Part shown: positions 7,497 to 61,000 of the stretch, piece after piece
How positions within the stretch are numbered: position 1 is the stretch's first letter
Layout of the letters: each line of letters begins with the position of its first letter
Virus record (IMG/VR): IMGVR_UViG_3300042275_000095
Location: 27,110-91,109 of that record
DNA length: 64,000 bases
Strand: one strand, 5' to 3'
Source of the DNA: a virus
Lineage: Duplodnaviria; Caudoviricetes
The notes under the pieces: model-generated
What the model was told of the DNA's origin: nothing
Database searches by the model: none
The model's input: only the letters and a program-made list of their open reading frames with translations
Position numbers and translations under genes: made by a program

Positions 7497-9726
7497 AGCC
7501 TTCAAATAAGTTACCACTGATACCGCTTTTACTTTTAGTACCAGTTATTAGTTTATAATCTAAATGTAATGCTTTATCTAATATTTTATGTGATTCTTTA
7601 ATATAGTAATTACGATGTAAATCATTAAGACTATGATTATATCGTATATCATTAACTATATTCACAAACTGTCCTTTTTTTAAATTGAAGTTTCTAATTT
7701 GACCTCTTAACTTATACTTATCATGCGTAGGATGGTAACGTTTAATTAATACCTTACCCTGTGTACTAACATAATATCTATCAGTTTTTTGTAACTTGTT
7801 TTCTTCTACTTTACCTGTACTTGGATTAACATGTAAGGTAAACAGTTCCATAACATTGCCAACCTTTTGCGAATATACAAAATTAAATGGATTGTTATTA
7901 CTATTTACAGTATCACTAATAGATATACCATTTAAAAACCAATTTTCAAGTGCTATAGGTACTATTGGCGCACTGTAACCTTTATCTAATTTAATTTCAC
8001 TTTCAAAATCACCTTTTCTTTTAATCTCTCCGTTATCTTTAATTGCAATATAATGATTAACAGATGTTGCTAAATATCTAGAATAGTTTGTAAATTCAAG
8101 ATCGAAATTGAATAGTTTCTCCCACTCATGACACACTTGCAAATATGCATCTCTTTTCCCCTTGGGGACTTTACAGATTATACCATCAGTATTAGCACTT
8201 ACTGTTTGAATACCTTTCAAATATAACATTTCAATTAACTTAAACAACATTAATTGACCATTAATAGTTGTTTTATACATTGCACGTAAATCATATAACC
8301 AACCATGTTGATAGCCTAACTTACCATATATATTATTAATTGAGATTTTTAATCCTTCATTGATGAATTTATATTTTAATCTAATTTCCTTATCTAATGT
8401 CTTATCTTTTTGTAATTTCTTAGCCTCAACCCTATCATTTAACATTACTTCCAAAGCTGCTAGAAATACATTAGGGTCTAAGTGTCTAGGACATACAAAT
8501 GAATTTAACATTATGTTAGGATAATACGATACAACATCAGCATCGGTATAATCATATTCATCAGTACTTTTTAAATACATAGGTCTATCTACACTATGTA
8601 AACCACCTAATGCCATTTTATATTTAGTACCATTAAATATAATTTCCTTTTTAAATTTAACATGTTTAGGATGACCTTTAGAATATGCAGTTGTTCTAAT
8701 TAATTCATTATATAAAGTTTTAAATGTATCAGTTTCAAATGTTATATTATCTGATATTATATCTACAAAAGGCACTGCTCTTCTAACAGTTCTAAGTTTA
8801 TTAAATCGCCATACAGGTTTACCTGATATTTCAGAATACTTACTTTCTAATATCTTATCGCCTGTAGCACTTCTTGATAACGAATGAACGTTCACACCAA
8901 AAGTTTTAGATATTCCAGCTCGCATTTTAAATTCATTTCTACTTTTCTTAAAACCCATAATTGTAATTAATACATCATTTATGTTATAAGTTAAAGTATT
9001 GAATATACGACCTTCTTCTAAACCTTTTGGTGTATCTAGTCTCATACCTGGAGTATATGGTAAGTCTTGTATCCTATACCACATTAATGAAACTGCAACC
9101 TTTTTCAAACTAATACCTAATTCATTTAATCTATTCAACTTCATTATATCTAATTGAATACCTCTAAAGGTTAAAGCTTTTTTCTCATCCCAAGTTAATA
9201 TATCATTTACTATTTTATTACTTAATTCAAATAGTGCATCATTTAATGATTTATAAATATATTTATCATTACTAGGTTGTAATATATTTAACTTAGGTAT
9301 GTACCCAGTATTAGCTACTTCATCATTGGTTCTCATTAATAATCCTAACATAGGGTCATCATAACCTATGTTATTAAAACCTATTCTATAAATAGCTCGT
9401 GTTTTTATAAACTCTTTTAAATTTACACAACCATCACCTTTACGTATTGTAAATATAACAATATTCATATTACGCATTGTTTTAATTAATGCATTAACAT
9501 TATTTGTCATATCCGCTTTACAATACTTCTTAATTAATTGTTTAGATGTATCAGCAGGAATAAATGTAACAGAGAAGAAATCTTTATAATCCTCTATATC
9601 ATAAGCCCATTTATTTATATCAGGAAACTTATTAGGATTAGGATTTACAAATTCTTGTAAATATAAATATGGATTATCTTCAGTTGCAGTATAACCAATA
9701 GAAGATAAATATTTATAATCAATCAT
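7489..9726 (-). CDS. polB: DNA polymerase family B
   Basis: ExoI YDIE, ExoII GFNNIGYDD, ExoIII YNINDV, motif A DVVSYYPN, motif B KISINNIYG, motif C NTDG. Confidence 0.95.
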   Translation of the reverse strand: MIDYKYLSSIGYTATEDNPYLYLQEFVNPNPNKFPDINKWAYDIEDYKDFFSVTFIPADTSKQLIKKYCKADMTNNVNALIKTMRNMNIVIFTIRKGDGCVNLKEFIKTRAIYRIGFNNIGYDDPMLGLLMRTNDEVANTGYIPKLNILQPSNDKYIYKSLNDALFELSNKIVNDILTWDEKKALTFRGIQLDIMKLNRLNELGISLKKVAVSLMWYRIQDLPYTPGMRLDTPKGLEEGRIFNTLTYNINDVLITIMGFKKSRNEFKMRAGISKTFGVNVHSLSRSATGDKILESKYSEISGKPVWRFNKLRTVRRAVPFVDIISDNITFETDTFKTLYNELIRTTAYSKGHPKHVKFKKEIIFNGTKYKMALGGLHSVDRPMYLKSTDEYDYTDADVVSYYPNIMLNSFVCPRHLDPNVFLAALEVMLNDRVEAKKLQKDKTLDKEIRLKYKFINEGLKISINNIYGKLGYQHGWLYDLRAMYKTTINGQLMLFKLIEMLYLKGIQTVSANTDGIICKVPKGKRDAYLQVCHEWEKLFNFDLEFTNYSRYLATSVNHYIAIKDNGEIKRKGDFESEIKLDKGYSAPIVPIALENWFLNGISISDTVNSNNNPFNFVYSQKVGNVMELFTLHVNPSTGKVEENKLQKTDRYYVSTQGKVLIKRYHPTHDKYKLRGQIRNFNLKKGQFVNIVNDIRYNHSLNDLHRNYYIKESHKILDKALHLDYKLITGTKSKSGISGNLFEGYE

Positions 9727-9914
9727 TACAGTTTCTTTATAAATATTAATAATTTATCTATATTCGCTTTGTTTATTGTATGTTCCTCACTAACTTTCTT
9801 TTTACCTGCATATACTGCCATTTTACCACTGTCTTTTCCATGATTAAGAATAGCTCTTATTCTATAACCATTATATTCAGCTATTACATAACCTAATTTA
9901 GTCCTCTTGTTCAT
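9726..9914 (-). CDS. small hypothetical protein
   Basis: 62 aa, TAATG coupling to PolB. Confidence 0.7.
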   Translation of the reverse strand: MNKRTKLGYVIAEYNGYRIRAILNHGKDSGKMAVYAGKKKVSEEHTINKANIDKLLIFIKKL

Positions 9915-10533
9915 GTTGATATATTATTTTAATAGTTATTAATTTATCATTTTTTAGTTCACAATACTTTTCTAACGTGTACAATTTAAATTCATTGTTT
10001 TCTTCCACAGGAATGTATATTTGTACAACATTAAAAGTATTAACAATAAATCCTAAATCTACATGATTAGTAGATTCGTTTGAATTTTGTGTATAAATAA
10101 CAAATGGTAACAGTTCATTACCACTTAATAGTAATGTTTTACATATTGATTCAATACCTTTAGTTATTAAATCAATATTAGTAAAATTATTAACATTTGT
10201 ATATTTATTTGTAAAATCTATGAAATTAAATACATTTATAAATGATATATTAAATGCGTTTGAAAACTGAGATTCTAAATGATACATTGTATCAAATGCA
10301 TTAAGAATGTACTCTTCAAATGATACAATGCTACTAAATTTATTTAATATATCAAATTTAAATACATAACCTAACTTAAAAATTAAATCATGTCTACATG
10401 TTAATTTATCATGATTTTTTATTAAATATTTAAGATTACTATAAGAATCAAATAACTTTTTTATAGTATCGTATGTTATATTTAATTTATTAGCATCATA
10501 ATTACTAATAGTTATATATTTTATTTGTCCCAT
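9898..10533 (-). CDS. hypothetical protein
   Basis: 211-aa ORF in operon. Confidence 0.7.
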   Translation of the reverse strand: MGQIKYITISNYDANKLNITYDTIKKLFDSYSNLKYLIKNHDKLTCRHDLIFKLGYVFKFDILNKFSSIVSFEEYILNAFDTMYHLESQFSNAFNISFINVFNFIDFTNKYTNVNNFTNIDLITKGIESICKTLLLSGNELLPFVIYTQNSNESTNHVDLGFIVNTFNVVQIYIPVEENNEFKLYTLEKYCELKNDKLITIKIIYQHEQED

Positions 10534-10871
10534 ATTGTACCTTGTAAATTGTAATTATTGACTAATCTTTCTATATCAGAACTGTCAGTTATAGCAAACA
10601 TTGTACTATCTAATAACCAAGCTTCTTCTTGTGTTAAACTAGGTTTCATCATAAATGTATTATATAATATATAACCTGCTACACGTTCTTTTTTATATGT
10701 AAATAATTCATAGTTTAATGAATCTATAATAGCTGGGTATTCATTATCACATTTATTTTTTAATTCTACAACTCTTGTTGATAACACTCTAATATTAACT
10801 GTTAATACTACTATACATATACATAATATACCTATAGCTATATTTCGTTTATCATTTGTTAATCGTACCAT
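10521..10871 (-). CDS. hypothetical membrane-anchored protein
   Basis: Likely start at 10871 (MVRLTNDKR). Hydrophobic IAIGILCICIVVLTV followed by a coiled-coil-like segment. Confidence 0.65.
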   Translation of the reverse strand: MVRLTNDKRNIAIGILCICIVVLTVNIRVLSTRVVELKNKCDNEYPAIIDSLNYELFTYKKERVAGYILYNTFMMKPSLTQEEAWLLDSTMFAITDSSDIERLVNNYNLQGTIWDK

Positions 10872-11439
10872 TGTATTTAGGATTAAATTGATATTCAGGT
10901 ACAACCTTACTAAATAATTTATATAATAATTTCCAATGCTCATTATATATAGTTATAAATTCTTTATTTATACCTATATATGAAGGATGATACATTGGCA
11001 TTATTATCATATTTTTATATCTAAAAGGTTTACCTGCTAATTTCTTCACTTGATTAGAATAACCAGTGATTGTAGATATTGCAGTATTACCAAATAATAC
11101 TAATATCTTTGGTTTTACAACATTAATCTCTCGTATTAAATACTCTTTACAATTATTTATTTCATTACTGTTAGGTTCTCTATTACGTGGAGTTTTACAT
11201 TTTATTATATTAGTTAAATATAAATGTTCTTTTTCCCATCCATATAAATTAATATAATAATCTAATAGTTGTCCTGACTTACCTACAAATGGCTCTCCTA
11301 ATTTATCTTCTTTATAACCAGGTGCTTCTCCTATGAACATCATATCAGCATTAATTGATCCTTTTCCATCAACTACTTGAGTTCTTGATATACATAAGTC
11401 ACATCTAATACAAATTTTAATATTAGGATTTATGCTCAT
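10852..11439 (-). CDS. udg: uracil-DNA glycosylase, family 4
   Basis: CxxC-x-LC Fe-S ligands, GEAPG, PFVGKSG, TNIIKC..P.NREP, YHPS. Confidence 0.95.
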   Translation of the reverse strand: MSINPNIKICIRCDLCISRTQVVDGKGSINADMMFIGEAPGYKEDKLGEPFVGKSGQLLDYYINLYGWEKEHLYLTNIIKCKTPRNREPNSNEINNCKEYLIREINVVKPKILVLFGNTAISTITGYSNQVKKLAGKPFRYKNMIIMPMYHPSYIGINKEFITIYNEHWKLLYKLFSKVVPEYQFNPKYNGTINK

Positions 11440-11442
11440 AGT

Positions 11443-12813
11443 CTAAGTTATTGTATAAGCTCTATACTTTGCTCTACTTAATGCAGTATATAACAAATTG
11501 TTTCTAAACTTACTTTGATATTCTTCAACTTGAAAGTCTTTTAAATCTACTATAATATTATCAACAGTTGTACCTTGTAATTTGTGAGTTGTTAAAGCAT
11601 ATCCATAATCTAATTCTTTTTGTATTGTATCATATACACTTCCATCTGTAGCATATAAATAAATATCATCTAATGTTAAATGAGAATCTTTAAATGCATA
11701 ATACTTTATCCAATTTTTACGTCTTTCAGCTTTAGTTGATTGTTTTGCTCTAATGTACGCTTGTTTTAATGCAGGTACAAATCTATTATTATAGGTAGGT
11801 GAATCTCTATTTACAATATTTACAGTTACTATCTTTTTAGTATCCATATTTTGTAAAGTTGTTAAACATCCATCTATTCCTTTTTCATCTGTTCTATATA
11901 CTACATCTATTACAATGTAATCATCACTATTTACAATAGTTGTATTTAGAAAAGAATCTAATAATGTTTTATAACCTGTTAAAACATCACCTTTAACTAA
12001 CATTCCATTTGCATTTGGAAACAATCGTGATCTTATTGATAAGTTAGCATCAGCTATGGTATCTCTACGCCAAGCTGTAAATCTAGTATTTCGTATATCA
12101 GTTACATCTATAAAAAACTCATCTAATAATGCAGGTTTCATATGTCTAGTTAAAGTTTGAATACCAGTTTCCATTTCTCGTAAATCAGCTTTAGCTCTAG
12201 ATAATAATGCATTATTAATTCTACTACTACCGTTTTTTATATCACTTCTTAACTCTGTTAAAAGCATTAATAATTTATTATTTTTAGATTGTCTTACAAC
12301 TTCAGTTAGTTCAAAACTGTCTTGAGTTGCAAATGTTCTAGATATACGATTTTCACCAATTGGTGGTAATTGATATGGATCACCAACATATATTATTTTA
12401 ACACCTAATTTCTTTGCACGTTCAATAGTTAAAGTATGTATACCATGTGGTATTTGAGATGCTTCATCTATAACTATAAGTTTATAATTACCTAATTTTT
12501 GTTCACCCATAGGGTCAAATTGCATACTTCCAACTTTAAAATCAGATATATTGAAATTTGGTCTTAATCCATGTAGTGAATGTAATGTTTCACCCTTTAC
12601 TTTAGTTGCTTGTTCTATAACACGTACTGCTTTATGAGTAGGTGCAGCAACTGCTTTAGAATAATGAATACTTTGTAAAAAGTCTTTCATCATAAAAGTT
12701 TTACCTGTTCCAGCAGGGCCTTTAATTACAGTCCATACTCTATTAGAACTCTCTAAAAACTTTAATAAATGATCTTTACCTTTTTGTTGACTAATCGTTA
12801 AGCTCATACTCAA
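11443..12813 (-). CDS. Dda/RecD-like SF1B DNA helicase
   Basis: GPAGTGKT, APTHKA, VIDEAS, GDPYQLPP, VVRQ, YALTTHKLQG, YTALSRA. Confidence 0.93.
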   Translation of the reverse strand: MSMSLTISQQKGKDHLLKFLESSNRVWTVIKGPAGTGKTFMMKDFLQSIHYSKAVAAPTHKAVRVIEQATKVKGETLHSLHGLRPNFNISDFKVGSMQFDPMGEQKLGNYKLIVIDEASQIPHGIHTLTIERAKKLGVKIIYVGDPYQLPPIGENRISRTFATQDSFELTEVVRQSKNNKLLMLLTELRSDIKNGSSRINNALLSRAKADLREMETGIQTLTRHMKPALLDEFFIDVTDIRNTRFTAWRRDTIADANLSIRSRLFPNANGMLVKGDVLTGYKTLLDSFLNTTIVNSDDYIVIDVVYRTDEKGIDGCLTTLQNMDTKKIVTVNIVNRDSPTYNNRFVPALKQAYIRAKQSTKAERRKNWIKYYAFKDSHLTLDDIYLYATDGSVYDTIQKELDYGYALTTHKLQGTTVDNIIVDLKDFQVEEYQSKFRNNLLYTALSRAKYRAYTIT

Positions 12814-13045
12814 ACACTGTTATGTTAATATTATTAAATGTACCATCTTCATATTTAATCATAACTAAATATTCAGAATGTAGATGTTTAATATTATGTG
12901 TACACATTAGTGTAGTTTTTACTACTGTACGTTTGTGATTGTAGTGACTACTTATAATATATTCTATATTATCTTCGTTATCAGTTACATCTAATAATTC
13001 AGGTCTTCTACAATACTTATTGTTAGTTGCTATTAAAATATACAT
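12791..13045 (-). CDS. hypothetical protein
   Basis: 84-aa ORF in operon. Confidence 0.6.
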   Translation of the reverse strand: MYILIATNNKYCRRPELLDVTDNEDNIEYIISSHYNHKRTVVKTTLMCTHNIKHLHSEYLVMIKYEDGTFNNINITVFEYELND

Positions 13046-17420: not shown

Positions 17421-17810
17421 TTATATTAATAACCTAAGTAACATTCCTACAACTAATCCAATTGTTACACTTACACGTATTATACCCCTACGTTTGACTG
17501 AATTACAAAATATGATTGCATTACTAGTATTACCTGTTAAACTTATTATTTTTTTAAGTACATCTAATCTATACTTATGAGGTGCAAATACTAATATTAA
17601 AGTATTTATTGTAATAAATAGCTCACTTAATCTTACTAATCCAAGTAAAATAAGAAACATGTTAAATCTAGTACTAAATTTCATATATAAGTGAGCTTCA
17701 CGTAATTTATTATATACTTTATTATCAGTAATTGCAAGGTCATATACACTTTTATGTGTTTTATCATTTGATTTATTTAATGCATCTAATACTTCATTAA
17801 AGTTTTTCAT
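17421..17810 (-). CDS. hypothetical membrane protein
   Basis: Likely start at 17810 (MKNF), with hydrophobic segments. Confidence 0.65.
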   Translation of the reverse strand: MKNFNEVLDALNKSNDKTHKSVYDLAITDNKVYNKLREAHLYMKFSTRFNMFLILLGLVRLSELFITINTLILVFAPHKYRLDVLKKIISLTGNTSNAIIFCNSVKRRGIIRVSVTIGLVVGMLLRLLI

Positions 17811-17891
17811 AGCAATGGTTATTAAATTAGTGAATAATCGGTAATTCCCCATACGGGAAAAGAGAAGCCATTTTCATTACAAACTAACTAG

Positions 17892-20389: not shown

Positions 20390-20827
20390 TTAGTTGTTAA
20401 ATGTTGAGTAAAACATTTTAGTTAAAAAGATTATCAAATCGTTACTTCTATTAGATAAATTGTATTTCATATGAAATGTAATTTCATTAGATTCGGTTAA
20501 TTCATCTAATTTATTTATAAAGTTTGATAATTCACTGTAGAGTTTAGTAATATCATTATATTCCTTAGTGTCTAATCTGTATTCGACAATGAAATTACCA
20601 TGATATACTACATCAGTAACTTTAGCTAATTCTTTGTATAGTTTCTTATTTTGATTAATAAGTTCTTTTTCATTAGCTAAAGTTATCTTATTCTCGTTGC
20701 CATGTAGAATGTTTAAACGAACTGTTAATACATCAGTATAATAAAATATTGAAATATCAACTTTTATAATATCATTCTTATTTGGCATATCATTGAATAG
20801 GTCTAAAGACCCTGAAGTGTTTGCCAT
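20390..20827 (-). CDS. hypothetical protein
   Basis: 145 aa. The start codon lies inside a copy of the dispersed motif. Confidence 0.7.
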   Translation of the reverse strand: MANTSGSLDLFNDMPNKNDIIKVDISIFYYTDVLTVRLNILHGNENKITLANEKELINQNKKLYKELAKVTDVVYHGNFIVEYRLDTKEYNDITKLYSELSNFINKLDELTESNEITFHMKYNLSNRSNDLIIFLTKMFYSTFNN

Positions 20828-20861
20828 CTTTCTTTCCTTTAGGGGATTTGTAATTAATTGA

Positions 20862-27553: not shown

Positions 27554-27788
27554 AACACCCTCACTCTATTTTCACATCTTCCAAACTATCCTAAACTCTA
27601 ATATATTTTACTATCATCTCCTTCTAATCCAACTAACCAATATTATCTCTAATCTCTAATCTACTCCACTTAACAATTAATCAATCTCACCTTATCTCTA
27701 CCAAATTAAATACTCTACCTTTCTAACTATTAAATAACTAATCAACCCCCTACCCCCTACTACCCTACTTTAATATAATATATAATAA
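27554..27788. other. 235-nt G-free tract in the divergence region (candidate origin element)
   Basis: No G on the plus strand between G27553 and G27789. Includes CCCCCTACCCCCTACTACCC near its right end. Confidence 0.85.
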
Positions 27789-27837: not shown

Positions 27838-27862
27838 GTGCATCTCTTTCTCCTTTAGGGAG
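27838..27862. repeat. dispersed hairpin/polypurine/GATGC motif (representative copy)
   Basis: GTGCATCTCTTTCTCCTTTAGGGAG. Related copies at 8147, 17846, 20823, 52445, 58025 and 60768. Confidence 0.75.
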
Positions 27863-29214: not shown

Positions 29215-29865
29215 ATGAAATTAGATAACAGATTTACACCTATATTAAAGGATGATGAAAATGCCGTAAGTATAAGTCTTCCACTATGTGACAGAGCATA
29301 TAGGGAATTATATGAAGACAAAGCCGACCCTATTCTAAGAGATAAGGAGTTGGCTTTTGTCGTATTAACTCAGTCACCTAGTAGTTCACTAGTTAAACAA
29401 GGGTTTGAAGGTGATGAGTTATTTGAAGCTGCTAGACGTGAATTAGGATTATCTAAATTGTGGAAACCATCAGAGAAGGTATTACATGCAATACAACATT
29501 ATAATAGTACAAATGGTTCTGCAATTGAAAAGTATGTAAAGAACTTACATAAACAATACAACAATAGAAATAAGAGTATTAGTATAATAGCTAAGAAAAT
29601 AAAATTATTACAAAATCAAATTCATAGAGTTGAAGAGTTAGGAGATAACAATACTTCTATGGTATTAGAGTTAATAAATCAATTAGTTGAATTAGAAAAA
29701 TCAATAGATGTATTATCTAAATCTGTACCAGAACAAGTTAAAACTTTTAATAGTGCTATATCAGAACTACAAGAAGAGATGAAACGCAATGTTGTAACTC
29801 AAGGTGGTGGTATAGTAGATGATTCTATGGATCCTGACAAATCAGTTATAAATCAAAGATCATGA
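29215..29865 (+). CDS. conserved crAss-like protein upstream of terminase (possible small terminase subunit)
   Basis: Helical, 216 aa, syntenic position before the PD-(D/E)xK nuclease and TerL. Confidence 0.5.
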   Translation: MKLDNRFTPILKDDENAVSISLPLCDRAYRELYEDKADPILRDKELAFVVLTQSPSSSLVKQGFEGDELFEAARRELGLSKLWKPSEKVLHAIQHYNSTNGSAIEKYVKNLHKQYNNRNKSISIIAKKIKLLQNQIHRVEELGDNNTSMVLELINQLVELEKSIDVLSKSVPEQVKTFNSAISELQEEMKRNVVTQGGGIVDDSMDPDKSVINQRS

Positions 29866-30842
29866 TGGTAGAAGAACGCATAATCTATTTTAATGAAGAA
29901 TTGCATAAATATACCGATCAATTTAGTAATGTATATACAAGTGCTACAACTAAGTTAAGTGAATATGAACAAAAGCAAGACTTTAAAAAAATAGCAATGG
30001 CTTGCGAAAGGATTGGTAAGAATCCAGAACATAGAAACTATTATAAATACAAAGGTAAAACTGCTCAACAATTATTGAAAGAGTGGAAACTAATTACCGA
30101 CAACTCACTCGATAGAGGAAATACGGAACACAATTATTTAGAAATAAGTGTGAAATTAGCTAATGGGTTTGAGAGTAATTATAAAAAAGGTAAAAGTTTA
30201 TCAATTGGAAATAAAGAATATACTAGAATGTATAGTATATATGATTTGAAAATAGGTAACTTAAATGATGTAGGAGAAATATCAATTGAAGAATTAAAAG
30301 TTCAGAATTTACATATACGATACCCTGATATATTTAATCTAATTGTCAGTTTACATAAAAAAGGATTTAAGTTTTATCCTGAGATAGTAGTCTATCATCC
30401 TGATTGGTTAATTTCAGGTATGGTAGATTTACTTGCTGTTAGAGGTAATGAATTTATAATTATTGATTGGAAAACTAATAAAGGAGATATATCTTTTGAA
30501 GCGGGTTATTATGAGAAAGATTCTAATGGTGATATGACAAATGTATTTCATAAAACAGGTAAAACATTTAAATATCCTATTCAACATTTACCTGCATCTA
30601 CAGGTCATAAGTACTCATTACAATTATCATTATATGCATATTTCATTGAAAGGTTTGGATTTAAATTAAAAGGTTTATTATTATTTCATATTACACATAA
30701 CGAGATTAAAGAAAGTGACAATATAAGATGGAGAACTAAACCTATTAAAATTGAATACTTTAAAGATGAAATTGAAGCTATAGGTAATGATATAATATTA
30801 ACAGGTGATAACCGTAATACTCAATATAATGCATTTAAATAA
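29862..30842 (+). CDS. PD-(D/E)xK family nuclease
   Basis: RGNTEH...PEIVVY...SGMVDLL...IIDWKTN...YSLQLSLY. Confidence 0.88.
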   Translation: MMVEERIIYFNEELHKYTDQFSNVYTSATTKLSEYEQKQDFKKIAMACERIGKNPEHRNYYKYKGKTAQQLLKEWKLITDNSLDRGNTEHNYLEISVKLANGFESNYKKGKSLSIGNKEYTRMYSIYDLKIGNLNDVGEISIEELKVQNLHIRYPDIFNLIVSLHKKGFKFYPEIVVYHPDWLISGMVDLLAVRGNEFIIIDWKTNKGDISFEAGYYEKDSNGDMTNVFHKTGKTFKYPIQHLPASTGHKYSLQLSLYAYFIERFGFKLKGLLLFHITHNEIKESDNIRWRTKPIKIEYFKDEIEAIGNDIILTGDNRNTQYNAFK

Positions 30843-36192: not shown

Positions 36193-37713
36193 ATGACAGA
36201 TGTTAAAATTGAAAAAACAAATCTTTTGAACAGTGAATTAAACATAGTACAATTGGGAGTTGATTTTAAACTTCCTAATTTCTATGCATTAGATGTATCA
36301 GGTGGAAATAATAATTCTGATAATAATTCTGATAATACTTCTGATAATGATAATTCAGATAATAATTCAGATAATAATTCAGATAACAATAAAATTGATA
36401 ATTCAACTACTGATAAATCTAAAAATGTAAATACTAATAATTCAGATAATAATACATTTTCAACTGATGGACTTGAATCAATAACCCTTGAAGGAGAAAA
36501 AGATGATTATTATTTGAGTGCTAATGGTGAAGTAGTTAACAATAAAGGTGAAGTTAAATACAGTAAAGAAGAATATGACAAGCTAGTTGCTAATAATGTT
36601 GTTGATGATGTACCTGATGGTTACACTTTAGTTGAGGTAGATGGTTTTGATGAAACTGTTTATTTAAATGAAAATAAAGAATTAGTAAATGCAAAAGGTG
36701 AAGTATTAAAAACTGCTGATGAAGTAGAAGCTGAATATGATATGGGAAATGATGATACAAACCCATTTATTGAAGGTTTAAGAAGTACTAATTTATTTGA
36801 AGATGTAGATTCTTTAGAATTTACACCTGATAGTGTAACTAGTGTTGTAAATACTGCATATGATAAAGGTGTTAATAAAGGTAAAGATGTAGCTATAGCT
36901 GAACTTAAATCTAAGTATCCACAATTAGATGATGTAATTAGACATATGGAATTGTATGGTACAGATTTTAGTAATTTTAATCAATTACCTGATTATGCAA
37001 GCATTGAAATAAATGATAATACTTCAATTGGAGTATTAGATTCAATTGTTAAAGATTGGCATACTGCTAAAGGCTTACCTATGGATACCGATTATATTAA
37101 TTTTCTAAAGAATGGAGATAAGTATAATGAGTATGTTACTAAACTTAAAGCTGATTTATCTAATATGGTTGTTGAAAGAAAAACTGAAATGGATAAACAA
37201 ATAGCAGCTAAAGAAAAAGCCAAACAAGATAGAATTAATAATTATTGGGGAGTGGCTATAGATAATAAAGGTAATATGGTTGACCTCAATATAGAAAACT
37301 CAGTTTATAATAAAGTTATGAAAACCGGTGAAGTTAAACTGGGAGATGAAACATTGCAAATTCCTAAAGTAATTAGATCAAATATTACTGGTGAACCAAA
37401 AGAGTACTCTAGACAAGATTTCTTCAATTGGTTATTTATACCAAAACCTGTAGAAATTGATGGTGAACGAATAAATGCAACAGGTTATGATATTTATTTG
37501 TATAATACAAATAAGAATCGTACTGTAAATCACGATGTCGTAGACGCATTTACAGCTTTTACAAATGGTGATAAATCACAACTCATTAAGCAATCTGTTA
37601 ATAAGCATGTAAAAACCCAAAAGAGTATTAAACTTAGTAGTAAAAGTAGTTCAACTACCAGTAGAAAAACAAGTAAAAAAACAGATGGTAAACCTAAAAT
37701 GAGGATTAATTAA
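36193..37713 (+). CDS. putative capsid scaffolding protein
   Basis: Acidic, low-complexity N-terminus, located between portal and MCP. Confidence 0.65.
   Translation: MTDVKIEKTNLLNSELNIVQLGVDFKLPNFYALDVSGGNNNSDNNSDNTSDNDNSDNNSDNNSDNNKIDNSTTDKSKNVNTNNSDNNTFSTDGLESITLEGEKDDYYLSANGEVVNNKGEVKYSKEEYDKLVANNVVDDVPDGYTLVEVDGFDETVYLNENKELVNAKGEVLKTADEVEAEYDMGNDDTNPFIEGLRSTNLFEDVDSLEFTPDSVTSVVNTAYDKGVNKGKDVAIAELKSKYPQLDDVIRHMELYGTDFSNFNQLPDYASIEINDNTSIGVLDSIVKDWHTAKGLPMDTDYINFLKNGDKYNEYVTKLKADLSNMVVERKTEMDKQIAAKEKAKQDRINNYWGVAIDNKGNMVDLNIENSVYNKVMKTGEVKLGDETLQIPKVIRSNITGEPKEYSRQDFFNWLFIPKPVEIDGERINATGYDIYLYNTNKNRTVNHDVVDAFTAFTNGDKSQLIKQSVNKHVKTQKSIKLSSKSSSTTSRKTSKKTDGKPKMRIN
36310..36390 (+). repeat. 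12-bp tandem repeat encoding (NNSD)n
   Basis: AATAATTCWGAT units. Confidence 0.85.
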
Positions 37714-37715: not shown

Positions 37716-39197
37716 ATGAAAATTTTAAAACAGGCTGTAAATTATGACACCGATTATTTCGTAGATGAAAATACGTTATATCGGAATGAATTGGTAAGTC
37801 CTATTGAGCTTACACAAGCTATTACTTACTTATGGGGAATGAATAGTAAAGAGTTCCCATTGCTTAACCACGTCTTTGGTCAAGGTGGTGTTAAGACTAA
37901 GAAGCCTACAATGCTTAATGAAACTACCTATACTTGGAAAGTAATGGGTCGTATGGAATTAATTACTGTTGTAGACGGATTAGCTGTTGGCACATTAACT
38001 CAACCTGGAATTGGTGGTACTACATTTGACATTTTGTTTAGAGATGGAATGTTACATGCTTATTACACTATTTACACACCTAGTGGAAAACAGTTACGTG
38101 TTAACTATGAACCTACTAGAGAAGGTCAACTGTGGCGTGCGAATGTTACATTGATGACTAACAACATGGCTGACTATGTACCACTAGGAGACTTTGTAGA
38201 AGGCTTAGCATGGGGTTATGGTGTACCAACTATTGCAAGAAGTAAATCAGGTGGTACAGCTAGCAACCGTGTAACTCCGGGTGAAGCTACTAACCAATTT
38301 GGTTTCTACCGTTTCTCAGATAACATTGCAGGTAACATTGCAAATCAGGTTACTGAAGTAGAGTTTACTTTTGATGGTCATCCTCCTACTAAACTTTGGA
38401 TGCCAGAAGAAATGCGTCAATTTGAGTGGCAAAATCTATCAATGATTGAGGTTGATTTGTGGGAATCAGAATATAACCGTACAGAAGATGGTAGAATTAC
38501 ACTTATTGATGATGAAACAGGAGAGCCTATTCCAAAAGGGTCAGGTATTTTTGAAACTGTTAAATCTGTAGGTAACTACGATACGTATTTTAATTTAACA
38601 GTTGATAAATTAGATGGTATTGTAAATTATATTTATGACCATCGAACTGATTCTACACCTACAGAACTCGTATTGTATACTGGTTCAGGTGGAATGAGAG
38701 CGTTCCATGAAGCTATTCAACGTGATGCTATTGCTAATCAATTCTTTACTCCTTTAGGGGATAATGTAATTAGTGGTGGTAGTCATCTTACTTATGGTGC
38801 TTACTTTAAGCAGTATAAGACTATTAATGATGTACTTATCACAGTACAAGAGAGTGATTATTTTAATCATAGTACCAAAGCACAGATGGATCGTCGTAAT
38901 GGCAGAATGCATAATGGACATCCATTCTATTCTTACAATATGGCTATCTTAGATGTATCTATTGATGGAACAGGTGGTCGTAATGTAGAGATGGTAGCTG
39001 AAGAAGGTCGTGAGAAGCTAGTTAAAATCTATGAAGGTATGTCAACTATTCCTGCTGTATGGGCGCCAGCTGCAAGTTCAGGAGTAGCAAGAGCAGCTAC
39101 CAAAAAAGATGTAGCATCTTATGAAATGATTATGAGTGCCGGTATTAATATGAAAAATCCATATACCTCATTCTTAATTGAATTTGAAGGTGAATAA
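37716..39197 (+). CDS. major capsid protein
   Basis: 493 aa, YTWKVMGR, GEPIPKGSGI, LYTGSGGMRAF, crAss-like synteny. Confidence 0.9.
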   Translation: MKILKQAVNYDTDYFVDENTLYRNELVSPIELTQAITYLWGMNSKEFPLLNHVFGQGGVKTKKPTMLNETTYTWKVMGRMELITVVDGLAVGTLTQPGIGGTTFDILFRDGMLHAYYTIYTPSGKQLRVNYEPTREGQLWRANVTLMTNNMADYVPLGDFVEGLAWGYGVPTIARSKSGGTASNRVTPGEATNQFGFYRFSDNIAGNIANQVTEVEFTFDGHPPTKLWMPEEMRQFEWQNLSMIEVDLWESEYNRTEDGRITLIDDETGEPIPKGSGIFETVKSVGNYDTYFNLTVDKLDGIVNYIYDHRTDSTPTELVLYTGSGGMRAFHEAIQRDAIANQFFTPLGDNVISGGSHLTYGAYFKQYKTINDVLITVQESDYFNHSTKAQMDRRNGRMHNGHPFYSYNMAILDVSIDGTGGRNVEMVAEEGREKLVKIYEGMSTIPAVWAPAASSGVARAATKKDVASYEMIMSAGINMKNPYTSFLIEFEGE

Positions 39198-52290: not shown

Positions 52291-53298
52291 ATGTTTAATG
52301 ATAAAGTAGATTATACGTTTAATTATTGGGATGAAAACCTAAGGTATATGGCTCAGAAGGGTCATGATGATAATGGTAGAGGGGATGGCCTATATAGAAC
52401 ATCTTTAGCTTATATAGCATACGGTAATGCTAAGTTAAAGAGTAGCATCCTTTCTTCCTTTAGGGAGTTTACAATGATTAACAAAAGACATCGTAAATTA
52501 GTACAGGGAGCTAGAGCACCTTTTAGACATAGTGAAGATGACTTTAGTCGTGATCAATATATTTTAGCAGTATCTGCTTTATACATTAAAGGTGACAGTG
52601 ATGAACTTGTTAATATTACTAGTAAAATACCATATCGTTTAAGTAGACGTTTTAGAATGACTCCTACATTATGGTGTTGGACTAAATATTTACAAGGTAA
52701 AAATAAGAAATTCAATTTAGTACTTTATAGAACATTAGAGTTACTATCACAATTATTTATAATACCTATATCTAAATTAGGGCAATTAATCACAGGATTA
52801 AATAAACATTACAGTATTACAGAATTATTGTCTGTTGATCCTAATCTACCGTATTGGCACTATGACAATACTAAAAAAGAATGGATTTATAAAACAGAAC
52901 CATCTAAAACTGCAACATTATCTCATAAGTTATGTAACAAACATTTAATGATGAAAGATACCAGATGGTGGTATAAGCTAGCCTATGGTCTAATTACTCC
53001 AGGATATGCTAATTCATTAGGTGCATACATGGCACACATTGCAGCAGGTAAATTGCTCAAACGTTTACTATTAACAAATATACCTAAAGCTAATATATTG
53101 CAAAGGTATTTATTAGATGATAAATCTTTAGATATTAAAACTGAGATATTAAAGGATTATCATGATTGTACAGGTTATATTTGGAATAGTAACTTTTTAG
53201 GTACAAGTATTAAGTATAAGTTATCAAAGCGTGAAACAGAATACAACAATGTTCCATTGGACATTATTAAAGCTTTTACAGATGCCAAGGAAGAATAA
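52291..53298 (+). CDS. hypothetical protein (helical, possible enzyme)
   Basis: 335 aa, GRGDGLYRT and RAP...DDFSRDQ conserved-looking motifs. Confidence 0.75.
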   Translation: MFNDKVDYTFNYWDENLRYMAQKGHDDNGRGDGLYRTSLAYIAYGNAKLKSSILSSFREFTMINKRHRKLVQGARAPFRHSEDDFSRDQYILAVSALYIKGDSDELVNITSKIPYRLSRRFRMTPTLWCWTKYLQGKNKKFNLVLYRTLELLSQLFIIPISKLGQLITGLNKHYSITELLSVDPNLPYWHYDNTKKEWIYKTEPSKTATLSHKLCNKHLMMKDTRWWYKLAYGLITPGYANSLGAYMAHIAAGKLLKRLLLTNIPKANILQRYLLDDKSLDIKTEILKDYHDCTGYIWNSNFLGTSIKYKLSKRETEYNNVPLDIIKAFTDAKEE

Positions 53299-54873: not shown

Positions 54874-55467
54874 ATGGCACTAGCACCCGAATATATAACA
54901 GGAGGCGCTGCTATAATAGCAGCAATAATAGGTGGCTTGGCTACTATCAAATGGGAACGTTTTAGAATAAGAAGATTAAAAAATAGAAAGTATAAGTTAA
55001 TAAACCAACGTATAAAGATAGATGCTGAGATACATGGAATGTTAGGTGTCTTACTTGGAATAACTAAAAGTGATAGGACTTACATATATCAGTTTCATCC
55101 TGATGCAAGCCCTATTTATTTTAGTTGTTCATATGAAGAAGTTAAACCTGGAGTAAGCATAGAAGCTGATAATCGCCAAAATTTAACATTATCACATCAT
55201 ACGTCATTCATCCAAGATATACAAGAAGAAGCAGTGACTTGTTGTAATGTGGATACAATAATGGATAAAAAAATAGGAAAAATATTAAATAGTCAAGGAG
55301 TTAAAACCGTATGCCTATGGCCTATTAAAAATGATAATGGGTATGTAATAGGGTTTGTAGGAGTTGATTATTTATCTAAACAACGTAGTATAGATTGTGA
55401 TATTAAGACATTACTTTCAAATTTTGCATTTACTGTATTTCCTAAATTAGCAAGTTATGAAAAGTAA
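54874..55467 (+). CDS. membrane-anchored GAF-domain protein (holin-like or sensor)
   Basis: Single N-terminal TM, then SDRTYIYQFH...FSCSYEEVKPGVS...QGVKTVCLWPI...VIGFVGVDY GAF signature. Confidence 0.8.
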   Translation: MALAPEYITGGAAIIAAIIGGLATIKWERFRIRRLKNRKYKLINQRIKIDAEIHGMLGVLLGITKSDRTYIYQFHPDASPIYFSCSYEEVKPGVSIEADNRQNLTLSHHTSFIQDIQEEAVTCCNVDTIMDKKIGKILNSQGVKTVCLWPIKNDNGYVIGFVGVDYLSKQRSIDCDIKTLLSNFAFTVFPKLASYEK

Positions 55468-55861
55468 GAAAATCGCATTTGTGGACGATAATCCAAATGA
55501 TCTAACTTTATATGGAGCAATGCTTAAGAATATGAATTATGAAGTATTGTTAATAAATAATCCATATATAGCCATAGATAAAATTAATGAATTTAAACCT
55601 GATATTGTATTTATGGATGTAAGGTTAGGTACTAACATTTCAGGTTTTCATTTAGTTAATAAATTAAGAATTGATAATTTTAAAGGTGCAGTTTATATGT
55701 TAAGTGCATCAGATGATTTTACAAATATAAATAATAGTTTAGATAGTGGGGCAGATGACTATTTAGTAAAACCTATTTTCAGTAATATTTTAAATAATTT
55801 AATTGAACGTTATAATGGCAACTCTAAAAGAGATATCAAACCAATGTTTAGCAATTGCTAA
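55457..55861 (+). CDS. single-domain response regulator (CheY-like receiver)
   Basis: D10-D11, phosphoacceptor D54, S83, Y102 and K105-P106 all present, no output domain. Confidence 0.92.
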   Translation: MKSKKIAFVDDNPNDLTLYGAMLKNMNYEVLLINNPYIAIDKINEFKPDIVFMDVRLGTNISGFHLVNKLRIDNFKGAVYMLSASDDFTNINNSLDSGADDYLVKPIFSNILNNLIERYNGNSKRDIKPMFSNC

Positions 55862-56429
55862 GATAAAACCTGATATTGTAGATTACAATATTCAATTGAT
55901 AGCCGCCGCTAATCTATTTATTTCAGCATACGCTAAACGTATAAGAGACGATATAAATAAAGGTAGACCTCAAGAGGCTTATTTAATAACTTACGATGTT
56001 GAAATGCAATATGATGAAACTAGAGGGGTATTAAGAAGCAAGTATAAAATATATAAGCCTATCCGTACAAATGAGTATGCCCCATTTAAAAGTGTTGGTA
56101 GTAAAGATGGCAGATTCATATTACAATATTCAAATAAGCAATCCTTTTGGATGCGTAGATTATCACAGTTTATGTCAGATGTTACATGTTATACTTATGA
56201 GCATGACTACCTTTACATATTTAATAATCATAAAATAGCAACTGTTGAATTAACAGCTGCATTTGAGTTACCATATTTAATTGAAATTGGTAATGAAGAA
56301 GTACAAAAGTTAGATAATGGTGAAGCACTGTTAAATGAATTTCCATGTCCTAATGATATGATAAATTCTATAGTAGCTGAAGTAGCATCAATGTTAATAT
56401 CAAACCCTACATCTAGTGGCAAAGCATAA
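55815..56429 (+). CDS. tail ring protein
   Basis: Likely start at 55815 (MATLKEIS...), with YLYIFN and EFPCPNDMINSI resembling crAss ring proteins. Confidence 0.6.
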   Translation: MATLKEISNQCLAIAKIKPDIVDYNIQLIAAANLFISAYAKRIRDDINKGRPQEAYLITYDVEMQYDETRGVLRSKYKIYKPIRTNEYAPFKSVGSKDGRFILQYSNKQSFWMRRLSQFMSDVTCYTYEHDYLYIFNNHKIATVELTAAFELPYLIEIGNEEVQKLDNGEALLNEFPCPNDMINSIVAEVASMLISNPTSSGKA

Positions 56430-57384
56430 TACTAAATATAATATTAAAGCATATTATGATAAATATATATCTTTGATATTGTCTCAACAAGAGCCATTAA
56501 TAGCAGAGAGAAAAGAAATCTATGTTATTAAAATAAAGCTGTATAAAAAGATAATGCCTTATAAAGAAGAATTGTTAAAAATAAGAGGACTATTTAAGTT
56601 CTTACGTAGTATTCAATTCTCACCTAATATGTATGATGAAGTTAAACATCATAGATATGCAAAGGCTGTTAAAAAACATTTAGAAAATAAAGAATTAGCT
56701 ACTAACTGTGTAGCTATAATGGAATATACAGCTAATGATTTAAAATGTAAAAAGAAATTAAAAGATACTGAATCTGCATTAATAACAAGTAGTGCGTATA
56801 AAAAAATATTAGATGCGTATTATAACTATATATCTAATTGGATATTGCAAGGATATGTTTTTTATATTGGCCCTAACCTAGGTAAAATATATATTAAAGA
56901 AAGACATAAGAATTTCATAAATGAATTAGGTGAAACAAGAGGAATAGTTGATTATGCTGCATCATATGCACTATTAGAATCAATAGCTAAAAAACAAGAA
57001 GCGGAAGGAAAGCATCAATTATATACCGAATATAAAGAGTTGCATAAGTATAACATTAGACAGTTTACACATGCTATGAAATCTCACACGTATTCACCAA
57101 GTAATCCTGATTTACCAAAATGGATAATCTATCATACTGATGATTGGGTTCCTTATTTTATATGGGGAAATAAAGATAAGAGTATGACTGAATTATCTAA
57201 ATATACTTTTAAACCTACATCATTTATAAATACTAAACTACGCAATAAAGAATTATTTATTAGCAATGTTGAAAATATAGATGATATTATAAATTGTAAT
57301 GAATTAGGTGTGAAAGACAAAATGTTTTTAATTAAACGATTCGATTCCAGTTATTATAAGGAGACTAGAGATGATATATCATAG
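56416..57384 (+). CDS. crAss IHF-like protein
   Basis: ILQGYVFYIGPNLGKIYIKE...W...YTFKP, syntenic before the tail tubular protein. Confidence 0.6.
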   Translation: MAKHNTKYNIKAYYDKYISLILSQQEPLIAERKEIYVIKIKLYKKIMPYKEELLKIRGLFKFLRSIQFSPNMYDEVKHHRYAKAVKKHLENKELATNCVAIMEYTANDLKCKKKLKDTESALITSSAYKKILDAYYNYISNWILQGYVFYIGPNLGKIYIKERHKNFINELGETRGIVDYAASYALLESIAKKQEAEGKHQLYTEYKELHKYNIRQFTHAMKSHTYSPSNPDLPKWIIYHTDDWVPYFIWGNKDKSMTELSKYTFKPTSFINTKLRNKELFISNVENIDDIINCNELGVKDKMFLIKRFDSSYYKETRDDIS

Positions 57385-58075
57385 TATTAGTAGTGAAGTG
57401 TTAGTAGCTAAAATAGATAATAGCTATACAATTACAGGTAGTACAGATTGGATAACTAGATTACCTGAGTGGGTTGCAGATGCGATGGCTCAAATAGATA
57501 TGCCATTATCTTATTCAAGACAAGAACCGTATAAAATGACAATTGCAGGTAGACGTGGCAAATTACCTTGTAACGTAGAACGTGTTTTATTCATAACAAA
57601 AGATGGTAAAGCAATGTCATATATACAAGATGGTGTAATGAGACAACCTAATGAAAATATTGAAATAAGTGGTACATATTTTTATGAATATACAAAATCT
57701 GGTCATATTATATGCAATTTTGAAAGCGGTACAACTTACGTTTATTATAAAGGTATTGATAGTGCATATAACAAAGTTCTGGGTATATCGTTCCCTTATG
57801 TGCCATATAATAGAGTTTTATTGAACGCTTTGGAAAGTTATACACTTTATCGTATATTAACAAAAGGCGGTACAGTACTAGGACAAAGTTTAGCTAACAA
57901 TAATCCATATACAAATCCAGCTTTACAATGGGAATTATCATTAAAAAAGGTTAGAATTGCATTGTTAGATGATTATGATGAAGCTATGGAAAATATAGAT
58001 GCTACTATGAGAGGCTTCATAAAACCCTACGGGGAAGAAAGAGATACACGTGATTACTTAAATACATTAGAATAA
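57371..58075 (+). CDS. tail tubular / ring protein (P22 gp4-like)
   Basis: EWVADAMAQI...GKLPC...PYVP...ALESY, directly upstream of the stabilisation protein. Confidence 0.7.
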   Translation: MIYHSISSEVLVAKIDNSYTITGSTDWITRLPEWVADAMAQIDMPLSYSRQEPYKMTIAGRRGKLPCNVERVLFITKDGKAMSYIQDGVMRQPNENIEISGTYFYEYTKSGHIICNFESGTTYVYYKGIDSAYNKVLGISFPYVPYNRVLLNALESYTLYRILTKGGTVLGQSLANNNPYTNPALQWELSLKKVRIALLDDYDEAMENIDATMRGFIKPYGEERDTRDYLNTLE

Positions 58076-58076
58076 T

Positions 58077-61000
58077 ATGAGATTTACAGGTGGTATGCAA
58101 CCTGATGCAAACATTTATGATTATGTAGATGGTACATGGGTTAATGCAAAGAATATAAGACGAGTTAATAATGTTATAGAAGTTGACTATGGCACTGTTG
58201 ATGTATCTACTATAGGTGGTGAAGTTGTTGGAGTATGTAATACTGGAACGGCGTTATATATATTCTCAAGTGAACAAACAGCAGGTAGAGATAGGATATC
58301 TAAATTTGATGGTACATCTGTAACTTTATTATTATATGCAGATTTAGACTTAACACCTAATGTTGAATTACAAGTAGTGTATAAATATAATGAAAAAGGT
58401 GAAGTTGTTTTAGCTTGGATTGATAGTATTAATAAACTTAAAGTTTTAAATATAGATAACTTACCATTCATAAACGGTATTGATCCTGTAACTAAAGAAT
58501 TATCCGTATCTTCAGATTTAGATTTAATTACAAATTGTCCAGTGTTTGACCAACCTACATTATCATTAAAATCAGAAGTAGATGGTATTTATAATGCAGG
58601 TGTTTATCAAGTATGCATTAGGTATAAATATAAAGATGTTATTACAAATTGGTCAGTATTGTCTAATAGAGTTATTATATTAGGAACTTCTAAAACTTTA
58701 AATTATTCTTCTTATAGTTATCATACGTTAAGAAGTTTATATAATGATAATGTTTATGGAATGTATCCTTATTTATTTAATAGCATTAATAATAAATCAT
58801 TAGAGCTGACATTATATGAATTAGATACATCATATCAATATATTGATATAGCTGTAATTAAATCTTTAGATGCTGGAGCATATGAAAGTACAGTAGGATT
58901 AATAACTAATATTAAAATAAACAACTATAGTGAATTTACAGTTAAATTATCAGGACGATATGATAGTTATACTGAATTAAGTGACATTTTAAATAAGTCA
59001 TATTCAATATTAGCTCCTAAGAGTATTACTAATTTCAGAGATAAATTATTAATTGGTAATTATTCATCTATTGACATTAATGATGACCCTAGAGATATAT
59101 TATCAAATTTAACTATAAATTGGAAAGCTGAAAAATCAAGTAGTAAAAGTGCAACTTTTCAATGGGGGGAAGTATATGCATTTTATGCAGCATATGTATA
59201 TGAAGATGGAACTAAAAGTCCGTACTTTCATATATACGGAAGAGAGCATGTATCTCCATATGATGATGATTTTAAAACATCTAATACTGCGTGGATGCCA
59301 CCGTTAACATCAGGTGATGATATAGTAGGTCAAATGGGAGCATGGCAAAATGATGATGAAGTGTACACAGATGGTGATTATGTAGGTGAAAACGTAAGAC
59401 ATCATAGATTTCCACATAAGAATTGGGCATTATCTACCGCTATAAGTGATGCAGGTTGGACAAATGAAGATACAAAGTTTGCAAAATTAGGTATAACTAT
59501 AGATTTATCAACTGTTACATTACCAAGTAATGTTAAAGGTATTTCAATAGGATATGCAAAACGTGATTTAAAAAATGCAACTGTTGTAGATGTAGGAATG
59601 GCAAGTCATGTAGAATATAAATTATATACTGATTTATCATTAGAATATAATGGTACAATGTTTAATTTCCCTATTGCATTTATTAATGGCTTTATACCAT
59701 CAAATCCATACATTGTAGGAGTTTATGATTATAAACATGAATTGGCAGCATGGACAACATCAGGAGAAATATCATTAATTTATAAACTAGAAGATAATGA
59801 ATCAACTGATAATACATTTAGACCTGATTGTTATTTCTTAGAACACACATCATATTATACTGAAAGTTCTCCTAGTCCTTATGTAGGGCACACAGTTCAA
59901 TTAATGAACAATATATCCAATATTTATAATCCTTATAGCAATCAAGAAATAGTAACATGTGCATATATTAAAAATGGAACAAGTAAAGCAATATATGAAG
60001 GTGATGTATATACATCATATGCTGTGATGCCAAAATATACATTAGTAGAACGTGAAGGTGGATTAGATGATGTTATACTTAGAGAACATAGGCAAGTCAT
60101 AATAACATCTCCGTTAATACCAGACTTAATGGAGTTTTCAGGATTACCTATGTACAATGATAATAGTATAAATGTGAACATGTTTGAAAAAGGGGTACAA
60201 ACATTATCATTTAATAGATTTTATATTAGACTAATGGGTTTACCTCAACTTCCATTAAGTGAAATATATGTAATGTTTGATGCATTAGTTAATCCAATAA
60301 ATGAATTTAAAAACTCCATAGTAATATCAGATATAGGAAACATAAATGATAATAAATGGTTACGATTTGATACATCTAACTATTATACGATGCCTAATAT
60401 AAATGGTAGTATTTATCAATTAATTACATATGGAAATGCTTTATATATACGAACTAATAGAAGTATATATATGGCTAAAATACGTGATACTTTTGATATG
60501 TCTAATGGGCAAGTAGGCTTAAAATCAGGTGAACTATTTGACCAATTACCACAAGAGTTAATACCTACCTCAACTGGATTTATAGCAGGTAATTCTAAAT
60601 TAGCAACAAGCATAACTAAAATAGGAGTTGTTATAGTTGACATTACAACATCAAGTATTTATATATTAGGTAATGAATTTGTAGATTTAACTATAACAAA
60701 TAAGGAATATTTTAAATGGCTATTCAATAATATATATGAAGGAGCTGTTAATAAACCAGTAAACAATGTGCATCTTTCTTCCCTTGAGGGAGCTAGTATA
60801 TGCTATGAATCAGCTTACAATCGTTTATTCATAACTCTTAATACTAAAGTATTAACTTTCGATGTTATGAGTAAACAGTTAATATCAGTATTCGACATTG
60901 AGCCAAATTACATATTTAGTTTACTAGGCAATAATACTCCTTATTATATATGTGGTAATTCAAATGATGGATTTAAAATTAAAAAATTATCTAACTCAAC

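Follow-up and report, generated by a model that had tools for sequence, protein, structure and literature searches.

What is the GC-rich word that recurs inside and between the genes of a very AT-rich crAss-like phage, and what might read it? The window analysed here is a 64,000-nucleotide stretch of viral DNA (Duplodnaviria; Caudoviricetes), bases 27110-91109 of the 91,109-bp linear IMG/VR virus record IMGVR_UViG_3300042275_000095. The genome has 29% G+C, and the phage is metagenome-derived only. An earlier note on the window described a dispersed 22-25-bp motif with a hairpin, in at least seven copies, and offered a promoter, a primase site, a nicking site and a nucleoid-protein site as possible functions. 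Selection keeps the motif as a signal at the level of DNA; it is no protein motif. It is this lineage's own version of a dispersed signal common to the seven crAss-like genomes examined, among them the prototype gut crAssphage. As judged from sequence, the list of functions looks reasonable. Our first choice, a tentative one, is that each copy may mark the point, on one strand, at which phage-directed synthesis of RNA or a primer begins.

Read on its purine-rich strand, the motif is an ungapped CCC-N4-GG-R7-GAWG(C/G), a strand-asymmetric word of fixed length (21-24 bases). Copies aligned from the right are gap-free; what is conserved is the fixed distance between blocks, and no stem. The genome has nine canonical copies, six of them in the window, plus one variant that is 2 bases longer (window 58025), where chance predicts about 0.2. 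In the purine reading, three of the canonical copies are plus-strand and six minus-strand. A looser pattern, CCC-N2-5-GG-R7-13, has 11 matches in the genome, where 200 dinucleotide-preserving shuffles give an expectation of 0.24; when GATGC is added, 6 are observed against 0.005. CCCTAAAGGA is the most over-represented 10-mer of the genome, with 5 copies against 0.05 under a third-order Markov model. A weight matrix scores the nine fixed-length copies at 36-46, which is circular in that the matrix was built from those copies; the next best site in the genome scores 12. In shuffled genomes the highest score under the same matrix averages 7.9 and never exceeds 15.2.

All seven sequences listed in the earlier note lie at the coordinates and on the strands it gave. 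Six are canonical and the seventh, at 58025, is a probable member of variant form, while two further sites put forward as weaker copies, at 36485 and 38742, are not members. The site at 38742 has a matrix score of 1.7, which is noise level. The dispersed word of the earlier note is confirmed, in an ungapped form. The hairpin does not hold up as a feature: at the seven window sites the single-stranded DNA folds at -0.4 to -3.8 kcal/mol (z +0.7 to -2.0), with loops of 4, 5 or 6 nt. Known RNA families and tRNAs were sought at the copy sites and none was found.

The other rejected site (36485-36510, plus strand) reads CC-N4-GGAGAAAAAGATGAT and lies in a 506-aa open reading frame (ORF) after the portal gene. 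It encodes T-P-L-G-E-K-M-I, a segment conserved in dozens of distant crAss-like loci, and it mimics the motif through coding constraint alone.

The canonical copies within genes cannot be put down to coding. When synonymous codons are shuffled within every ORF, 0.003 strict intragenic copies are found per trial, and 4 are observed. The excess over a codon-preserving background proposed in the earlier note is thus borne out, as is its view that a word found inside and between genes, in both orientations, is not a protein motif. The signal is assigned to DNA because of this shuffle, its occurrence on both strands, and a joint change of intergenic and intragenic copies in a relative. Dinucleotide shuffles, the Markov background and the synonymous-codon shuffles together rule out chance or a coding artefact.

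The relatives come from two collections. G1 is an IMG/VR fragment that runs colinear with 53.9-82.9 kb of the genome; the DNA is about 70% identical and the terminase 78%. IMG/VR has no relatives of the 1133-aa protein encoded in the window or of its family-B DNA polymerase (PolB), and relatives were taken from Logan assemblies. The contigs L152, L153 and L154 encode PolB 78, 66 and 59% identical to that of this phage, and L110 and L111 are homologues of its 335-aa ORF (76% and 48% identical). In IMG/VR the exact version found in this phage has nothing but single, chance-like matches.

Positions are kept among these relatives. Across G1 and the three PolB contigs (59-78% protein identity), 10 of the 11 testable orthologous places are occupied. 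G1 has copies at both of its testable places, in the divergent intergenic region (1385(-)) and antisense in the 335-aa ORF. Both are CCCGGAAGGAAGAAAAAATGCCCTCCA, identical to each other over 27 nt and unlike the version of this phage. At the genic site the peptide S-S-F-R-E-F is unchanged and the differences are synonymous (TTT/TTC, AGG/CGG, GAG/GAA); further 3' the protein sequence itself is altered, following the motif. The intergenic and antisense-genic copies of G1 have thus changed jointly, partly via synonymous codons. L110 also retains CCC-N4-GG-R7 by synonymous codon choice, and the more distant L111 retains the peptide with other codons and lacks the motif. Each of the three PolB contigs has a copy at the same PolB codons. 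Of the back-to-back doublet that separates dUTPase from the arm's final gene, two of these contigs have the full pair and the third has half.

As to the check on synonymous sites suggested in the earlier note, the 335-aa ORF keeps its copy by synonymous codons in G1 and L110. At the PolB copy, excess synonymous-site conservation is not significant among four sequences. The PolB site overlies a conserved peptide and has ordinary third-position identity, so that copy alone is no proof of selection on DNA. The sequence changes between lineages while the places stay constant, so the reader is probably a phage-encoded, sequence-specific protein that acts on DNA. The copies and nearby features are listed in Table 1.

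Table 1. Copies of the motif and associated features. Positions are those of the window unless marked genome; for motif copies the strand is that of the purine-rich reading, and the score is that of the weight matrix.
Feature	Sequence	Position	Strand	Score	Context
Canonical copy	CCCCAAGGGGAAAAGAGATGC	8147-8167	-	42.8	Inside family-B DNA polymerase gene (7489-9726, -), sense; encodes V-P-K-G-K-R-D-A
Canonical copy	CCCATACGGGAAAAGAGAAGC	17848-17868	+	36.0	Between two minus-strand genes, antisense to both
Canonical copy	CCCTAAAGGAAAGAAAGATGG	20824-20844	-	38.6	Provides the initiating ATG of the 145-aa ORF 20390-20827(-)
Canonical copy	CCCTAAAGGAGAAAGAGATGC	27840-27860	-	46.1	790-bp divergent intergenic region; top score
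Canonical copy	CCCTAAAGGAAGAAAGGATGC	52445-52465	-	40.4	Antisense in 335-aa ORF 52291-53298(+); coding strand S-I-L-S-S-F-R-E-F
Variant copy	CCCTACGGGGAAGAAAGAGATACAC	58025-58049	+		Two extra purines, GATAC; fails fixed-length matrix
Canonical copy	CCCTCAAGGGAAGAAAGATGC	60770-60790	-	45.9	Antisense in 1133-aa ORF 58077-61478(+)
Canonical copy		genome 10182	+		Upstream of window; inside giant ORF
Canonical back-to-back pair		genome 25036 / 25052	- / +		Upstream of window
G-free (plus strand) tract, 235 nt		27554-27788			About 50 nt downstream of the 27840-27860 copy in purine direction; context feature
RecT-like protein		4621-5634	-		tblastn match in 6/6 other motif-bearing genomes
RecD/Dda-like helicase		11443-12813	-		tblastn match in 6/6 other motif-bearing genomes
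Exonuclease		29862-30842	+		tblastn match in 6/6 other motif-bearing genomes

Some copies touch gene boundaries. The N4/GG part of the 17848-17868 copy overlaps the opposite-strand ATG of ORF 17421-17852(-), and the copy that the earlier note placed at a start codon does supply one, as listed. The variant runs over the final codons of ORF 57371-58075, and the 1133-aa ORF starts about 30 nt beyond it. On the purine strand, 6 copies of this genome are sense and 4 antisense. In the pyrimidine-strand reading, 4 of the nine canonical copies are within genes, two sense and two antisense, while the other 5 lie between genes or at gene boundaries. The doublet at genome 25036(-)/25052(+) precedes the final gene of the replicative arm; the gene next to the doublet has a 191-aa product. 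Nearby, after the dUTPase gene, is a terminator-like hairpin (genome 25330-25365, minus strand; AGGGAGTG-TGTAAAA-GCACTCCCT, then TTTTT), whose arms contain CTCCCT/AGGGAG, as found at the motif start.

The genome has a crAss layout, with a structural arm that includes a giant 5780-aa ORF, and a replication arm transcribed in the opposite direction. PHROGs assignments include terminase, portal, major head protein, DNA polymerase, a Dda/RecD-like helicase and primase. The giant ORF (genome 6999-24341, plus strand) lies upstream of the window and contains DFDID (ADFDID) at residue 2805. DFDID is the catalytic signature of the crAss virion RNA polymerase, according to the paper on phage phi14:2, so this phage encodes such an enzyme, in line with what the earlier note says of crAss-like phages. 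As the ORF is a single one, the polymerase of this lineage is fused with the neighbouring giant virion proteins, for which p-crAssphage and phi14:2 have separate genes. Against the phages of INPHARED the capsid protein reaches at most 40% identity. Its matches are all Crassvirales, the nearest being cr127_1 (Crevaviridae), and a search of INPHARED by DNA similarity found no close relative. Start codons in this genome generally have no preceding Shine-Dalgarno sequence, which would fit a Bacteroidota-type host.

The same enrichment test was applied to other crAss-like phages. A GC-rich word ranks first in p-crAssphage, in cr127_1 and in each of four complete IMG/VR genomes (G005-G008), which with this phage make up the seven signal-bearing genomes compared here. 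Phi14:2, a Cellulophaga phage, has no enriched GC-rich dispersed word by this test. The p-crAssphage word is TTCCAT-CCTC[TC]ACGGGG[GA]GT (31 copies), and that of cr127_1 spans about 45 nt around GCCCTTGTGGC (10 copies). Those of the four IMG/VR genomes are TCTACAGGGA, CTACRGGGGA, CCTCTACGGG and CTCTACAGGG, with 12-19 copies each. On the purine strand all have a C-run, about 4 bases and a G or purine run, with lineage-specific flanks: CTCCC-TAAA-GG-AGAAAGA-GATGC in this phage, CTCCCC-GTAG-AGGATGGAA in p-crAssphage, GGCC-ACAA-GG-GCGAGAG-GTGTT in cr127_1, and C-run-(T)GTAG-purines in the other four.

Together the seven genomes have 113 sites, 79 of them within genes (40 sense, 39 antisense). The remaining 34 (30%) are intergenic, in about 7% of the DNA, and split 24 to 10 by orientation. 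Neighbouring copies alternate in orientation more often than expected (76/113 vs 57.9, p = 0.0004). Copies along a strand are spaced more evenly than at random in p-crAssphage (P <= 0.001) and G007, as they are on a single strand of G005, G006, G008 and cr127_1. Doublets lie upstream of the last gene or genes of the replicative arm in this phage, L152, L153, cr127_1 and p-crAssphage. No description of the signal was found in the literature, including by searches with literal motif strings, and it is apparently undescribed.

Other features were seen in p-crAssphage (BK010471). Several copies are directly followed by GC-rich stem-loops flanked by AGCG/GAAGCG repeats, two of them inside the long ORFs gp45 and gp50; copies at 6022, 28078, 28173, 44954, 58728, 93668 and 95865 are examples. 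Of its sense-strand intragenic copies, 7/11 fall in one reading frame, and five translated by eye read P-S-S-T-G-G/S.

The divergent intergenic region of the window suggests one possible function. The earlier note had its copy pointing left to a G-free tract, and the 27840-27860 copy does face 27554-27788, its purine strand pointing to the replicative (minus) arm. The end of the tract nearest the motif has clusters of five C (ccccctaccccctactaccc, near 27742-27767), which are G5 on the minus strand. In purine direction the order is thus the copy, about 50 nt, clusters of five G, and then a 235-nt C-free stretch. G1 has the same composition and feature order (971-1132, ~1245-1265) in sequences that do not align. 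Candidate roles for such a tract are an R-loop or origin element and an unstructured non-coding RNA. G-rich, C-free transcripts form persistent RNA-DNA hybrids at origins such as those of ColE1 and the mitochondrial heavy strand. Single-base-free tracts near the start of the early arm are also found in p-crAssphage, cr127_1 and G008. A G-free or C-free tract adjoining a copy is not borne out as a general rule, being seen only here, in G1 and in G008. In p-crAssphage, one doublet precedes genes that include those annotated as RepL, and the other RepL has a second doublet ahead of it. A doublet also sits in its divergent region, in which, upstream of repL, a preprint on p-crAssphage as a phage-plasmid predicts an origin; the preprint does not mention the signal.

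If the copies are start sites, the C-run and N4 would be the recognition element, on the 3' side of the template, and the pyrimidine tract would be the template, giving a product that begins with an 11-purine run. That product would be a primer or a short non-coding transcript, serving replication rather than gene expression. A back-to-back doublet would be two divergent starts, and the divergent-region copy would fire into the G-clustered, C-free tract, which could hold an RNA-DNA hybrid. A start-site function is ranked first mainly because of the layout of motif, G clusters and C-free tract in this phage and G1 together with the origin prediction in p-crAssphage, an inference from three genomes. 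Several other properties are consistent with it. The asymmetric, fixed-length word fits sites read by polymerases or primases, and an 11-base purine run suits the usual preference for a purine start and the usual primer length. The use of both strands irrespective of gene direction, the even strand spacing in relatives and the divergent doublets at conserved landmarks also fit start sites. The phage encodes both a primase-like protein and a virion RNA polymerase, which we count as fitting, and a crAss virion polymerase transcribes single-stranded DNA in vitro (phi14:2 paper).

Other observations weigh against start sites. In this genome, with 9 sites to judge by, even spacing along the strands does not show: the coefficients of variation are 0.54 (P = 0.14) and 0.61 (P = 0.46). 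Close relatives differ in the 3' block GAWGC (GATAC, GATAT, AATGC, AATAG). The PolB site coincides with the conserved peptide K-V-P-K-G-K, and its third-position identity is 0.63 against a gene mean of 0.57. The primases known to us read about 3 bases, not about 20. Phi14:2 has a primase and a virion polymerase, yet lacks the signal. Its early virion-polymerase transcripts have been mapped and share no common upstream motif, and it is the only crAss-like phage with mapped early transcripts. Since phi14:2 is without the signal, this published result says nothing on the lineages that have it. A bolder version is that many crAss-like phages write programmed strand-specific start sites into both strands, even through genes, and replicate from many fixed points instead of a single origin. 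The injected two-barrel RNA polymerase or a primase-helicase would begin primers or R-loop transcripts at the copies. This version is doubtful. If true, it would be a mode of replication without a described counterpart among phages.

The signal may instead mark nick sites, at each of which a phage nickase would cut a single strand of the mature or replicating DNA. This is unlikely. The nick motifs reported for T5, phiKMV-like and tf/LUZ24-like phages have 9-20 nt and 4-14 copies per genome, within coding sequence as well as outside it, and lie at similar positions among relatives; the present motif shares their copy number, positional conservation and lineage-specific sequence. However, the known systems nick one strand only, whereas copies here are on both, and the doublet would nick opposite strands within about 50 bp. 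No nickase was identified: eight replicative-arm proteins have no Pfam match, two others match only UDG or dUTPase, and several other proteins likewise have no PHROGs assignment.

We also consider it unlikely that the copies are binding sites of a phage DNA-binding protein, which might be a regulator, a stoperator-like roadblock, a replication initiator, or an architectural or condensing protein. An inverted doublet would then be a high-affinity operator of the adjacent gene. The doublets upstream of the last replicative-arm gene or genes in five genomes or contigs (among them RepL genes in p-crAssphage), the excess of intergenic sites in the pooled set, and a fixed length suited to read-out of duplex DNA all agree with this. 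However, the 191-aa product next to the doublet has no detectable DNA-binding family. It has no RepL similarity and no Pfam or PHROG family, so RepL is rejected as its identity, and its AlphaFold model has a predicted local distance difference test (pLDDT) score of 52.5, with no predictable fold. A regulator also offers no obvious reason for sites deep inside long genes. Stoperators follow transcription, and the genic copies do not.

A polar signal of the Chi or KOPS type, read by a translocating helicase-nuclease or DNA motor and protecting or orienting DNA at ends or breaks, is improbable. Occurrence on both strands regardless of gene direction, even strand spacing in relatives and the alternation of neighbouring copies agree with such a signal. 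So does the presence of a RecD/Dda-like helicase, an exonuclease and a RecT-like protein in the six other motif-bearing genomes. That profile is non-discriminating as a way to find the reader: even for the terminase and capsid protein of phi14:2 tblastn finds no match, so a gene missing from that phage looks the same as a diverged one. The Chi and KOPS words described so far have 5-8 nt, are enriched in the host chromosome and are not kept at fixed places, whereas the present word has 21-24 nt and its copies are kept; spacing in this genome is also not demonstrably regular. Across 301 genomes (~1 Gb; class of a Bacteroidaceae genome) there are 41 motif matches, near the reversed-pattern control, against 9 in 91 kb of phage. 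A search of 185,579 species genomes gave 17 single matches. The word is phage-specific and not a host-chromosome word, by this indirect comparison.

We give little credence to an ordinary expression signal, whether as a promoter for the host's RNA polymerase or that of the virion, as a terminator or, for translation, as a Shine-Dalgarno sequence with ATG. The purine strand reads AGGAG-spacer-ATG and one copy starts the 145-aa gene; the copies at genome 25036(-) and window 58025(+) are about 30-35 nt upstream of genes, and the pooled intergenic copies lean to one orientation. However, genes of this genome generally do without Shine-Dalgarno sequences, the ATG is missing in 2/9 copies, and only 1/9 opens a real ORF, the others opening 5-26 aa. 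Relatives carry ATA or AAT at the ATG position. These points rule out a ribosome-binding site with small ORFs. Likewise, the weak stem and lack of a following T-run rule out an intrinsic terminator. The hairpin promoter of phage N4, to which the earlier note likened the motif, is a poor analogy: the hairpins are marginal with a shifting register, orientation is independent of transcription, 4/10 copies are antisense to local genes, genic copies have no strand preference, and four are deep inside genes. The motif is neither an N4-type hairpin promoter nor one of the kind that faces its genes.

A miniature mobile or REP/BIME-like repeat spreading by insertion is scarcely credible: the inverted doublets resemble BIMEs or REPINs, but the genic copies are not insertions, as the 335-aa ORF and PolB align gap-free through the site and L111 has the peptide and no motif. 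The places also stay the same in relatives of 59-78% protein identity, and palindromic character is weak.

Crassvirales include the most abundant human-gut phage, and their replication, early transcription and DNA processing are largely obscure. A word of about 20 bases that is selected through coding genes, at fixed places on both strands and in many lineages each with a version of its own, must have conserved phage machinery as its reader. Naming that reader would open one of these obscure steps to study, and the signal would be an easy marker for classing crAss-like contigs. To the signal as seen in other genomes, this window adds a version that is longer and strictly constant in length, in a lineage remote from the gut prototype, and a clear joint change of intergenic and antisense-genic copies within a lineage. 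It also adds a conserved doublet before the last replicative-arm gene and, in the divergent control region, a conserved layout of motif, G clusters and C-free tract.

Several known systems resemble the signal in part. Promoters of the N4 virion RNA polymerase and of T7, T3 and SP6 are likewise fixed-length, lineage-specific words read by a phage enzyme, and here too the phage injects an RNA polymerase. Those promoters face genes, however, and the present copies do not. N4 promoters have a 5-7-bp stem and a 3-nt loop, whereas stems here are 2-5 bp, and the crAss polymerase is a two-barrel enzyme, not T7-like. CTAAAGGAGAA resembles what we take to be the T3 start region, CTAAAGGGAGA, a likeness of use as a lead only. 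Chi (RecBCD/AddAB) and KOPS/SRS (FtsK/SpoIIIE) are also strand-specific polar words found on both strands independently of genes, and KOPS and SRS are G- or purine-rich. The stoperators of cluster A mycobacteriophages are asymmetric repressor sites of about 13 bp dispersed through the genome. They share with the present signal many dispersed, asymmetric copies of one word, some of them genic. They are oriented with transcription, whereas the genic copies here (40 sense, 39 antisense) are free in orientation, which rules out a stoperator-like site.

The nick motifs of T5, phiKMV-like (CGACNNNNNCCTACTCCGG) and tf/LUZ24-like (TACTRTGMC) phages are similar in being short conserved words with about 4-14 copies at kept positions. 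They differ in lying on one strand and having demonstrated nicks, while the present motif is on both strands and known from sequence alone. The signal of the gut crAss phages, of which p-crAssphage (Carjivirus communis) is one, consists of a pyrimidine tract, TAC and a G-run and is alike in ranking as the top word, with 10-31 copies on both strands, in genes in either direction and between them. It too has places kept among relatives and a back-to-back doublet near the end of the replicative arm. The middle of the gut signal is GTAG or TGTAG, whereas here the middle four bases vary, the copies are fewer (9-10), and the word is extended by a fixed 7-purine spacer and GAWGC.

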